DNA from: Candidatus Woesearchaeota archaeon
Lineage (GTDB): Archaea; Nanobdellota; Nanobdellia; SCGC-AAA011-G17; CAZHCT01
Length of the DNA: 31,970 bases
Assembly (NCBI GenBank): GCA_964531355.1
Contig: CAZHCT010000002.1
Location: 1 to 31,970 of the forward strand
Reading direction: 5' to 3'
Translations under genes and position numbers: made by a program
The notes under the pieces: model-generated
The model's input: only the letters and a program-made list of their open reading frames with translations
Database searches by the model: none
Told to the model about the DNA's origin: nothing
Part shown: positions 1 to 5,582 of the stretch, in pieces
Numbering within the stretch: the stretch's first letter is position 1
Layout: each line of letters begins with the position of its first letter

Positions 1-499
1 TGTAAGATTCTATCAAGCGAGCATCAGCTGGAATTTTATCGCCTGTTTCAATAAATATAATATCACCTGGAACTAATTCAATTACATCTATTGTTTGTTT
101 TTTGCCATCTCTCAGAACTTCTGTTTTTAAGCTTGATAATTTTTTTAATGCCTGGATTGATTTTTCTGCTTTATACTCCTGCATAAAACCCAGAATTGCA
201 TTTGAAATCAAGATGAAGATTATTGCAATTGCTTCTGCAAAGTCAATTAATCTTGTATTTCCAGGGTTTTCATAGAGCGGAAGAATAATAGAGATTACAG
301 CTGCAATAATCAATATCCATATTAAAATATCTTTGAACTGGTTTAAGAATATTTTTAGAGGAACAAGTTTTTCTTTTTCTTTTATCTGATTCAATCCATA
401 TTGTTTTAACCTTCTAAGAAATTCTTTATTAGTTAAACCTTTTTCAGAACTATCTAATTCCTTAAATACCTCTTTTATTTCTCTCTGGTAAAATTCCAT
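1..499 (-). CDS. P-type cation-transporting ATPase (type II-like), N-terminal part; runs off the window edge
   Basis: Not in ORF track. Manual translation from ATG at 499: MEFYQREIKEVFKELDSSEKGLTNKEFLRRLKQYGLNQI... two TM helices, GFMQEYKAEKSIQALKKL, and actuator motif LVPGDIIFIETGDKIPADARL. Confidence 0.95.
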   Translation of the reverse strand, partial: MEFYQREIKEVFKELDSSEKGLTNKEFLRRLKQYGLNQIKEKEKLVPLKIFLNQFKDILIWILIIAAVISIILPLYENPGNTRLIDFAEAIAIIFILISNAILGFMQEYKAEKSIQALKKLSSLKTEVLRDGKKQTIDVIELVPGDIIFIETGDKIPADARLIESY

Positions 500-515
500 T
501 AATATTTAAGTTAAA

Positions 516-536
516 AATAGAATATTTAATGTTTTC
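516..536. repeat. 21-bp direct repeat, copy 1 (AATAGAATATTTAATGTTTTC)
   Basis: Exact match to 1239-1259. Contains a minus-strand TATA-like ATTAAATA (523-530) 23 nt upstream of the ATPase ATG. Confidence 0.95.
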
Positions 537-544
537 GCTTGAGT

Positions 545-874
545 TTATATTGTAATTTTTAATTTCTGTTTGTTAATTTCTTGATCCATAAATTTTTTAG
601 AGATAGCTAAGTCTAAATCCATTAATTTTTTTACTAGTTGGTTATTCAGATTTAGTTTGTATAGTTCTGCTCTTCCAATTCTTCTAGTTTTTATAACTAT
701 CTCTAGTTTTACAAGTTTATCCCAAAATAGGTGCAATGTACTCCAACCAATATCTGCATTTTTTGCAATATTTGTTAAGCTGTAATCAAATTCCCTATTG
801 TCTAGAAAGAAATCTATAACTTTTACTATTGGAGAATCTCCAAATACTAGCCTAAAGGATGATTTTTCTTCCAT
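545..874 (-). CDS. Small winged-helix (ArsR-like) DNA-binding protein
   Basis: FGDSPIVKVIDFF...YSLTNIAKNADIGWSTLHLFWDKLVKLEIVIKTRRIGRAELYKLN gives HTH plus wing; TATA-like box about 25 nt upstream. Confidence 0.8.
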   Translation of the reverse strand: MEEKSSFRLVFGDSPIVKVIDFFLDNREFDYSLTNIAKNADIGWSTLHLFWDKLVKLEIVIKTRRIGRAELYKLNLNNQLVKKLMDLDLAISKKFMDQEINKQKLKITI

Positions 875-974
875 TGTAATGTATGATAATATTAGCTTAT
901 TTATATACTTTTTGGTATTTAAACATTCATAAATCTGAATAAAAGCTTAAAAATATAGGAGTATTAATAATAAT

Positions 975-1214
975 ATGAATTTAAGAGAAATTATTTTGAG
1001 GAAATTATACAGACGCAGGATAATTGGCGGAAAGCATACTGCAATAGAAAATTTAACAAAAAGTTTGCCAAAGCATATGATAGGGAAAGCAAGAGATGTT
1101 GTTAATGAACTGATTAAAGAAAGGTTTATCTTAGCAAAACCAACTTCTTATGGATTACAGGTTAGTTTAAATCCTGAAAGAATTAACGAAATTTGTAAAA
1201 TTATCGGAGAATAA
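975..1214 (+). CDS. Small basic hypothetical protein, possible winged-helix fold
   Basis: 79-aa ORF divergent from the 109-aa wHTH gene; helix-helix-hairpin pattern AIENLTKSLP...ARDVVNELIKERFILAKPTSYGLQVSLN. Confidence 0.7.
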   Translation: MNLREIILRKLYRRRIIGGKHTAIENLTKSLPKHMIGKARDVVNELIKERFILAKPTSYGLQVSLNPERINEICKIIGE

Positions 1215-1238
1215 TTTAGATTAACTATTCTACTAACC

Positions 1239-1259
1239 AATAGAATATTTAATGTTTTC
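1239..1259. repeat. 21-bp direct repeat, copy 2
   Basis: Exact match to 516-536; lies 2 nt from the stop codon of the 127-aa gene (1262). Confidence 0.95.
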
Positions 1260-1261
1260 AA

Positions 1262-1645
1262 TTACAGAATAAATTTTTCTGTTTTTAATTGGTCATACAG
1301 ATGCATATAATCTGGAGCAGAAGACATATGCTTTAACTTTAATGCATTTCTCCTTAATTTTTCAAAGAAATTGAATATTTTTTCCTTTACATCTTCTTCA
1401 TCTTCAATCCTTATTATTTGAATGCTGTCCAAAATATCATCTGTTTCATAAGTTACATCTGCGCTTCTTTTAACTCTCTTGATTATCTGATCGGCTAGGT
1501 AATCTGAAACTATTTCCCTGCATTCCTGGGTTAATTCTGCCAACTTATTGTCTATATCATAAAGAACGCGGAATTTTATTATATTTTCATTTGGAGCAAA
1601 GTTAACTACTTCGATTTTTTTAATTTTCAAGATAGTTTTTTTCAT
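1262..1645 (-). CDS. Hypothetical protein
   Basis: 127-aa ORF, 4-nt overlap with the upstream gene, normal composition; no recognised motif. Confidence 0.7.
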   Translation of the reverse strand: MKKTILKIKKIEVVNFAPNENIIKFRVLYDIDNKLAELTQECREIVSDYLADQIIKRVKRSADVTYETDDILDSIQIIRIEDEEDVKEKIFNFFEKLRRNALKLKHMSSAPDYMHLYDQLKTEKFIL

Positions 1646-5004: not shown

Positions 5005-5024
5005 TATTTTCTAGACTTAAAATA
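5005..5024. repeat. 20-bp direct repeat, copy 1 (TATTTTCTAGACTTAAAATA)
   Basis: Exact match to 5549-5568; has 6-bp inverted ends (TATTTT...AAAATA). Confidence 0.95.
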
Positions 5025-5038
5025 ATTTATTATTTTAT

Positions 5039-5269
5039 TTATTTTCTAAGCAATTTAAGAAAATCCTCTCTGCCTAATCCGCTTTGAGAGATTATGCTTA
5101 ATAATGTTCCTTTCGCAAGTTCTTTGTGCTTTGGAACAACTACAGTTATCTTTTGTTCTGGAATATTTTTGCATAAGATCATATGGCTTCCTGATTGCCT
5201 AGTCAATATAAATCCTGTCTTCTTTAGCACCTTTACTATTTCATCACCTGAAACAATGGGTAATTTCAT
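5039..5269 (-). CDS. hicA: HicA-family type II toxin (mRNA interferase)
   Basis: MKLPIVSGDEIVKVLKKTGF...RQSGSHMIL...VVVPKHKELAKGTLLSIISQSGL is a HicA signature. Confidence 0.92.
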   Translation of the reverse strand: MKLPIVSGDEIVKVLKKTGFILTRQSGSHMILCKNIPEQKITVVVPKHKELAKGTLLSIISQSGLGREDFLKLLRK

Positions 5270-5505
5270 AAGAATAATCTTGTAGCTATTGGAGGCAGAA
5301 GTTTTTCTTGTTCTTTAGGAAACTTTTCTGGACATTCTTCTAAGTAAAGATTAATTGCATCTTTTATGTTTTCTATTGCTTCTTCATAACTATAACCTTG
5401 ACTAGCAATTCCTAAATTTAAGCAATGAGCAACAAAAACTTTTTTTCCATTAATTATTTCTTCATTTACAGCTATGTCAAAAACTCCATTCATTTTTCTT
5501 TCCAT
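5266..5505 (-). CDS. hicB: Short HicB-family antitoxin without a C-terminal DNA-binding domain
   Basis: FVAHCLNLGIASQGYSYEEAIENIKDAINLYLE; 4-nt overlap with hicA; ATG at 5505 preferred over GTG at 5511. Confidence 0.88.
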   Translation of the reverse strand: MERKMNGVFDIAVNEEIINGKKVFVAHCLNLGIASQGYSYEEAIENIKDAINLYLEECPEKFPKEQEKLLPPIATRLFL

Positions 5506-5509
5506 ATAC

Positions 5510-5582
5510 ACTTAATTGTTTTATTTATTTATAAGCTTTATGGTGCATTATTTTCTAGACTTAAAATACTTAATTGTTTTAT
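5510..5582. repeat. 15-bp direct repeat ACTTAATTGTTTTAT (5510-5524 and 5568-5582) plus 20-bp repeat copy 2 (5549-5568)
   Basis: Exact matches read directly; 5549-5582 is the 3' end of the 116-aa gene. Confidence 0.9.

Follow-up and report, generated by a model that had tools for sequence, protein, structure and literature searches.

How toxin-antitoxin, restriction-modification and similar small modules move without a mobility enzyme of their own is an old open question. Among the closest described systems are the restriction-modification genes of Helicobacter, Haemophilus, Neisseria and others, which have been inserted with a long and variable target duplication and without other mobile elements (Nobusato et al. 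2000, Gene 259:99; Furuta, Abe and Kobayashi 2010, PMC2853133). In the latter study, the duplication, which reached up to about 420 bp, was defined as longer than 30 bp to exclude site-specific recombination, no archaeal case survived the screen, and its authors considered that DNA breakage by the cargo itself is possibly involved in insertion. Here, we describe an insertion with such a scar at positions 541-1238 of a 31,970-nucleotide stretch (hereafter the window) of contig CAZHCT010000002.1 from a Candidatus Woesearchaeota archaeon (assembly GCA_964531355.1), a member of the DPANN archaea. The segment holds two divergent genes, A and B, whose products of 109 and 79 amino acids are both predicted to be winged-helix proteins. 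It was inserted, in the lineage of the window, between the stop codon of a gene for a 127-amino-acid protein (the 127-aa gene) and the putative core promoter of a P-type ATPase gene, with 25 bp of the target duplicated, and is best explained as the recent acquisition of a small selfish module made up of two genes. The locus is thus probably a derived insertion of a cassette that inserts recurrently and carries no mobility enzyme.

The scar type, the one described so far for such modules, was known from bacteria alone; the novelty here lies in the host domain, in a cargo without a nuclease and in the family to which this cargo belongs, and a literature search yielded no paper in which Woesearchaeota, mobile genetic elements and direct repeats are treated together. 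As in the insertions with long target duplication, the unit is small and lacks a transposase, integrase or insertion sequence, the repeats are single-copy at the empty site of a relative, and the repeat varies in length from case to case and often overlaps the 3' end of a neighbouring gene. Two hallmarks of that class are found as well: both flanking repeats align with one and the same copy at the empty site (in contigs of four relatives, and in genome G006 compared with G078 and G033), and no transposase, integrase, insertion sequence or prophage lies in or beside the insert. Unlike the described cases, the host is a DPANN archaeon and the cargo consists of two winged-helix proteins without a nuclease instead of a restriction-modification system; moreover, the A/B repeats are shorter than in most of those cases (14-40 bp, 25 bp in the window, mostly below 30 bp).

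With type II toxin-antitoxin modules, A/B has in common two small genes, predicted mutual binding, many patchy and horizontally moved copies, and a dependence in which B is tied to A while A is able to stand alone; a hicBA unit in the window (5005-5582) bears the same kind of scar. In contrast to these modules, A and B do not form an operon but diverge over a 100-bp control region, here as at 72 of 102 family loci. No toxin family for A or B was found in Pfam, NCBIfam, PHROGs or PADLOC, where nothing lay above cut-off for either protein, and both folds are winged helices. B resembles in fold TubR of pBM400, AspA of pNOB8, SSV1 F-93 and STIV F93, and A, a winged helix followed by a long helix, resembles MarR/PadR-type regulators with a C-terminal dimerisation helix. 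However, sequence identity to these proteins is just 9-21%, no partition ATPase or tubulin gene lies nearby, and two different winged-helix proteins are predicted to pair with each other, not each with itself. Insertion sequences, miniature inverted-repeat transposable elements and casposons also duplicate their target directly, but A/B lacks a transposase, Cas1 and terminal inverted repeats, its duplication is variable (14-40 bp), and its copies within a genome are paralogues of 30-50% identity, not near-identical. From integrase-mediated integrative elements A/B differs in that no integrase lies in the cassette and the repeat is plain target sequence, which is missing beside the copy in G037, a genome of another family.

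The locus and its direct repeat

The window runs from the contig start onward in a genome of 743 kb, 65 contigs and 30% G+C. The features around the insertion are as follows.

2..499, minus strand: 5' part of the P-type ATPase gene, which is cut by the contig start (Pfam Cation_ATPase_N, E 2.4e-21; E1-E2_ATPase, E 4.6e-16); its promoter is the insertion target
516..540: repeat copy 1, the 25-bp target, identical to the single copy at the empty sites
522-529, minus strand: putative transcription factor B recognition element (BRE)/TATA-like element of the ATPase gene within copy 1, a TATA-like octamer 22 nt before the ATG, assigned from position and conservation
541..1238: inserted segment of 698 bp with genes A and B and their shared control region, missing from the relatives' contigs L052-L055
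545..874, minus strand: gene A, 109 amino acids, winged helix-turn-helix plus long C-terminal helix (AlphaFold2, Foldseek)
875..974: shared A/B control region, 100 bp, 17% G+C, with back-to-back TATA-like boxes, the probable promoters
975..1214, plus strand: gene B, 79 amino acids, compact winged helix-turn-helix by structure prediction, of a family without a name
1239..1263: repeat copy 2, which on sequence comparison overlaps the first two bases of the stop codon of the 127-aa gene
1262..1645, minus strand: 127-aa gene, the neighbour, identified as an open reading frame and in the relatives' contigs, where the ATPase promoter directly adjoins it

A sequence-only reading of this DNA had pointed to a perfect 21-bp direct repeat that encloses just two small genes, and both its coordinates and its sole gene content, A and B, were reproduced. 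The exact copies at 516-536 and 1239-1259, both on the plus strand, are the only two matches to this 21-mer in the window at up to 3 mismatches. Shuffled sequences gave a mean of 0.02 matches, and none of 100 gave two or more, in agreement with the view of that reading that a chance origin is very unlikely. Across the 743 kb of the genome there are two exact copies, plus one site with 3 mismatches on another contig, so that the 21-mer is not a genome-wide promoter or operator motif, the possibility which the same reading had set against its own proposal. Its figure for the extent of the repeat stands for the perfect part, whereas the real duplication is longer, namely 25 bp (516-540 and 1239-1263) with 23 of 25 positions identical, as given by the 25-nt overlap of the empty-site contigs described below. 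The difference consists of AA at 1260-1261 in copy 2, in place of the GC that copy 1 shares with all empty sites.

On the ATPase side, 16 nt separate copy 1 from the start codon (497-499); on the other, the 21-mer of copy 2 ends 2 nt ahead of the stop codon of the 127-aa gene (1262-1264). Judging from its position and from its conservation (20-21 of the 21 bases of the 21-mer are kept in relatives with flanks that have diverged by 8-26%), copy 1 appears to hold the TATA box and core promoter of the ATPase gene. The insert itself extends just 4 nt and 24 nt past the two stop codons. A 15-mer in gene B (1042-1056) matches the left end of copy 2 (1238-1252) at 14 of 15 positions, probably by chance in A+T-rich DNA.

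The empty site in relatives

Six relatives of the 127-aa protein are detectable, and contigs of four of them were fetched (L052, L053, L054 and L055). In all four, the stop codon of the 127-aa gene is followed by GC, one repeat copy, 16 bases and the start codon of the ATPase gene, which makes a spacer of 39 nt. L052, L053 and L055 are 89-96% identical to the window flanks at the nucleotide level, and L054, at 74-87%, represents an outgroup. The contigs align to the window until 1239 and then again from 540, the two alignments overlapping by 25 nt. As the outgroup is empty too, the insertion is the derived state, and with 25 bp of the target duplicated, both neighbours retained what they need. 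The inserted micro-cassette that the sequence-only reading had proposed is supported by this single-copy empty site and by the rarity of the 21-mer; moreover, its expectation that removal of 723 bp would join the 127-aa gene to an intact ATPase promoter describes exactly the layout of the four relatives and of a contig joint in two sequencing runs.

Of four groundwater runs, two (X1 and X2) gave contigs with this joint, which skips exactly 723 bp; its depth is 2.8, and filled contigs beside it have a depth of 5-7. It sits just right of the perfect 21-mer, as an allele with GC would give. In X1 and X2, contigs with a depth of about 3 that correspond to window 730-920 and 1527-2815 differ from the window by about 10% and point to a sister population in the same groundwater. 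Because of this difference, we infer that the joint belongs to that co-occurring population and is not a within-strain variant. One contig with a depth of about 3 covers part of gene A, and the sister population may carry A/B elsewhere. Three other joints, 700 to 1135, 862 to 993 and 884 to 1088, were rejected as variants of the window locus; they have short sides or replaced letters and were read as paralogues or other organisms. A back-joint from 1238 to 541, such as a circle would give, was absent from the joints of these contigs, which carries no weight in either direction.

Flanking repeats at other A/B loci

Sixty further loci were fetched, and for each A/B unit the longest exact repeat common to the 105 bases around both outer ends was determined. 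An exact repeat of at least 14 nt lies near the stop codons of 10 of 71 A/B units (nine of them with at least 17 nt), compared with 12 of 3000 random units of 700 bp within these loci and 2 of the 320 single genes tested in the window genome. With mismatches allowed and a score of at least 14, the counts are 13 of 70 A/B units versus 24 of 1500 random units (about 1.6%), and the repeats in this test are 14-40 bp long and 86-100% identical. Every repeat differs in sequence, and the periods range from 719 to 858 bp. In most cases a repeat lies at most a few bases from a stop codon, at one end or at both, and therefore the moved unit is little more than the stretch from stop codon to stop codon. 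Neither terminal inverted repeats nor a common end motif was seen in the ten repeat-bounded copies; a 13-nt inverted match in the window (1220-1232 and 1241-1253) is probably due to chance. Within the order, members of the A/B module family have entered unrelated sites on many occasions, leaving direct repeats of differing sequence and length. Fixed synteny without repeats, a pattern that the sequence-only reading had named as contrary to insertion, does not hold: the pair occupies many sites, and about a fifth of the copies have flanking repeats of their own.

A second case was resolved for genome G006, in which a 17-bp repeat flanks an A/B pair that has a PolX-like gene on one side and a lipoprotein gene on the other. 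In G078, these neighbours have a plain intergenic stretch of 90 bp between them, and in the sister genome G033, whose flanks are 92-96% identical, the single 17-mer is split by an unrelated 137-aa gene (L061 1081-1494, G033:C1). The site may be a hotspot that takes different small cassettes, since G101, a fourth genome of this family, also has an A/B pair upstream of the PolX-like gene. At L092 (G129:C50), an A/B pair with a perfect 36-bp repeat (830-865 and 1688-1723) lies inside a coding region, and the host gene is apparently split and provided with a new short C-terminus. In the window itself, 4 kb from the cassette, the hicBA-sized unit at 5005-5582 has a 34-nt direct repeat on either side, with 91% identity and a spacing of 544 bp.

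Two further candidates were set aside. An 18-nt repeat around an open reading frame on contig C44 looks like the repeated ribosome-binding and start region of neighbouring genes, not like a cassette. At L074, where the repeat resembles the T-arm and acceptor end of a tRNA, a tRNA target was unconfirmed by ARAGORN and Rfam, the contig ends 46 nt further on, and the case was not used as evidence.

Distribution and horizontal movement of the gene pair

In the order to which the window genome belongs, which comprises Woesearchaeota-type DPANN archaea, 87 of 151 genomes have A-like genes, the highest number of A-family matches in any one being 13, and 79 of 151 have B-like genes, in the same pattern over families as A. 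The closest proteins are named by their source as hypothetical proteins of Woesearchaeota or Nanoarchaeota. A profile of B matched 994 cluster representatives at E<=1e-3, all of them small proteins, and the ESM Atlas contains 83 clusters of B-like hypothetical Nanobdellota proteins. Limited searches of IMG/VR (by pattern scan), GenBank phages and PLSDB plasmids gave no relatives of A.

With regard to pairing, a divergent B stands beside 72 of 102 A genes, and about 30 of the 102 are without B. In a B-centred search, a divergent A was found beside 29 of 30 B genes, the sole exception lying at a contig end. B is almost never found without A, whereas A often stands without B. The window genome has four further A paralogues with 32-51% identity, three of which have a B paralogue divergent about 100 bp upstream, and no flanking repeat of at least 12 nt was found at these four loci (three A/B pairs and one A alone). 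At L036 1486-2156 (G004:C14) and L108 (G046:C31), two A-family genes are arranged in tandem or no more than 2 kb apart, which suggests module stacking. At L025 1917-2148 (G094:C9), the B beside a 78%-identical A is broken, two overlapping pieces matching B (1917-2123 and 2059-2148).

The window cassette is, as far as sequence comparison can tell, a recent arrival that was acquired horizontally. Its counterpart in G037, which lies at an unrelated site in a genome of another family, is 76% identical in nucleotides including the control region (A 80% and B 71% in amino acids), and the likeness stops at both stop codons; the amino acid identity between the two genomes is 36% for HisRS and 55% for ScpA. 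This high-identity subfamily is present in 5 of 151 genomes. In the family of G037 (f13), A is fixed beside ScpA in three genomes, and the B side varies, holding B, nothing or a VapBC pair. The last of these is found at L026 896-1485 (G131:C7), where a VapBC-type pair (a 73-aa AbrB-like and a 121-aa PIN-like protein) lies directly upstream of the conserved A, at the place taken by B in G037.

Predicted structures and binding of A and B

The AlphaFold2 model of A, with a predicted local distance difference test score (pLDDT) of 93.5, shows a winged helix followed by a helix of 30 residues. Its Foldseek matches are MarR/PadR-type regulators, Sso10a-2 and the centromere-binding protein AspA of pNOB8, with E-values from 1e-4 to 1e-3 and template modelling (TM) scores of 0.5-0.6. 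Profile matches below the Pfam cut-offs include DUF7342 (E 0.02) and MarR, the latter in 5 of 38 members at E 1e-3 or weaker, and the best profile match below cut-off, PADLOC PDC-M05A (E 4.8e-5), covers only the helix-turn-helix part of A. B is modelled as a compact winged helix (pLDDT 92.6), for which the best folds are TubR (TM 0.84), AspA (TM 0.76), SSV1 F-93 and STIV F93, all weak matches with E-values from 4.5e-3 to 1.4e-2.

A and B are predicted to bind each other through the N-terminus and C-terminal helix of A and the first helix of B. The complex prediction scored 0.90 in three runs, compared with 0.01 for the best of three controls. Of 80 solved complexes, 58 attained that mark, as did 2 of 110 mismatched pairs. 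At least 96% of contacts are common to the runs, the partner pLDDT is 89 or more, and the predicted contacts comprise residues 2-7, 22-31 and 88-103 of A and residues 1-20, 26-35 and 67-78 of B. As the two back-to-back TATA-like boxes of the control region lie within a block conserved with G037, autoregulation of the pair would be expected.

Proposed mechanism of insertion and possible function

The cassette contains A and B only, neither of which matches a recombinase family above cut-off, and no recombinase, transposase, Cas1 or inverted ends were found in it. A dedicated transposase gives a fixed stagger, and classical site-specific integration uses a shared attachment site (att) core. The variable repeat length, the lack of a common core and the finding that the repeat is ordinary target sequence in both resolved cases argue against either process. 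Instead, host functions may insert the cassette, either by filling in a break with a long stagger or by switching templates in the course of repair or replication, with small microhomologies where the ends join, a recombinase-free route that would amount to 'insertion with long target duplication'. Successive moves would trim the unit to little over the length from stop codon to stop codon, its ends being nibbled at each move and an A+T-rich target supplying a new stop. Such nibbling, together with new stops from the target, would explain the altered bases of copy 2, the repeats that cover gene ends at L027, L121 and L042, and also the highly variable C-terminal tails seen when B proteins are aligned. 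The lack of a nuclease fold in A and B points towards a process of the host.

As for function, it is quite possible, and is put forward here tentatively as the likeliest reading, that A and B repress their shared divergent promoters and that A neutralises or licenses B, in which case the pair would form an addiction- or immunity-type module and not a regulator of host genes. This reading is based on the dependence of B on A, the many diverged copies in very small genomes, the horizontal transfer and the repeated insertion.

Several observations weigh against this account. The mechanism has been read from scars alone, and neither an intermediate of insertion nor a circle junction nor an enzyme was seen. 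The 25-bp repeat falls below the 30-bp threshold of the bacterial cases (PMC2853133), and its length would also fit an att core. Two adjacent bases of copy 2 differ from the target, a change that simple fill-in does not predict. In addition, the repeat spans both stop codons at L027 and L121 and the last five codons of B at L042, so that the duplicated block looks partly cassette-derived, unless the target supplied the new gene ends. Some A copies are stably inherited, as beside ScpA in the three genomes of f13. With respect to function, the winged-helix folds are ordinary and no known toxin fold is present, and divergent transcription is unusual for toxin-antitoxin pairs.

Other explanations have been considered for the repeat and for the way in which the cassette moved. 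That the repeat was made by the assembler, through a chimeric join at a short shared k-mer, might be suspected from the location of the feature 0.5-1.3 kb from the contig start and from the fact that 21 is a common k-mer size. However, the 55-nt overlap of a neighbouring contig with the window start points to a final k of 55, and contigs built separately with k=31 from the four sequencing runs bridge both junctions at 100% identity; because these independent contigs show no difference, an artefact is scarcely conceivable. It is also very unlikely that the pair is ancestral here and was lost from the relatives by recombination between pre-existing repeats, which would make the empty state the derived one. 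Deletion between direct repeats of 21-25 bp would indeed yield the exact 723-bp difference, but all four contigs are empty, including that of the outgroup, in which the region of the 127-aa gene is just 74% identical in nucleotides, GC follows the repeat in all relatives as in copy 1, and an earlier event would still be needed to make the repeats; moreover, the cassette is 76% identical in nucleotides to the copy of a distant genome, against 36-55% amino acid identity for housekeeping genes. A non-autonomous integrative element that is moved in trans by a site-specific (tyrosine) recombinase, the repeats being att cores common to element and target, is improbable. A length of 14-40 bp is typical of att identity blocks, the repeat at L074 resembles a tRNA 3' end (a reading that ARAGORN and Rfam did not confirm), two tyrosine recombinases are encoded in the window genome (G000), and the repeat overlaps the cassette's own gene ends at L027, L121 and L042. 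These recombinase genes are unlinked, however, lying on other contigs, and may encode housekeeping enzymes of the Xer type; all repeats differ without a common core, the repeat is ordinary target sequence found in cassette-free relatives in the two resolved cases, no such sequence lies beside the closest relative of the cassette in G037, and one insertion is inside a coding region.

On the side of function, A/B could be mobile and yet constitute a harmless heterodimeric transcription factor or co-repressor pair that spreads as useful or neutral cargo, an alternative that is credible although somewhat doubtful. It fits the plain winged-helix folds, which are like those of MarR/PadR, TubR and AspA, the divergent transcription with a common control region and the stable retention of A beside ScpA in f13, and the need of B for A would be equally expected of an accessory subunit. 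Against it, the many diverged copies per very small genome, the patchiness, the horizontal transfer and the insertions into promoters and a gene are traits of a selfish module, the units hold no other cargo to regulate, and the scar of the hicBA toxin-antitoxin pair in the window is of the same kind. In its widest form, the addiction- or immunity-type proposal would hold that DPANN archaea possess a general host-encoded route that pastes gene-sized DNA with target duplications of 14-40 bp, and that A/B is a new selfish cargo of this route, in which a harmful winged-helix partner is kept in check by heterodimerisation with a second winged-helix protein; taken as a whole, this is unlikely and is offered as a conjecture.

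The locus bears on the movement of small modules in several respects. A scar of the long-target-duplication type is documented here by filled and empty sites in an archaeon, with a nuclease-free cargo, and it recurs over an order of genome-reduced symbionts; the same scar, the absence of a nuclease and the recurrence across the order point to a host pathway. The A/B, hicBA and similar cassettes of DPANN metagenomes, which number in the hundreds, provide a countable system for dissecting such a pathway. Moreover, a sizeable unnamed protein pair has been defined, in which the B family, with its 994 cluster representatives, has no Pfam family, and the predicted heterodimer is directly testable. 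As a minor observation on the neighbouring gene, positions 1-55 of the window recur without a difference at the end of contig C63 (4592-4646) in the same genome, so that these contigs are probably joined, with the ATPase gene continuing there.
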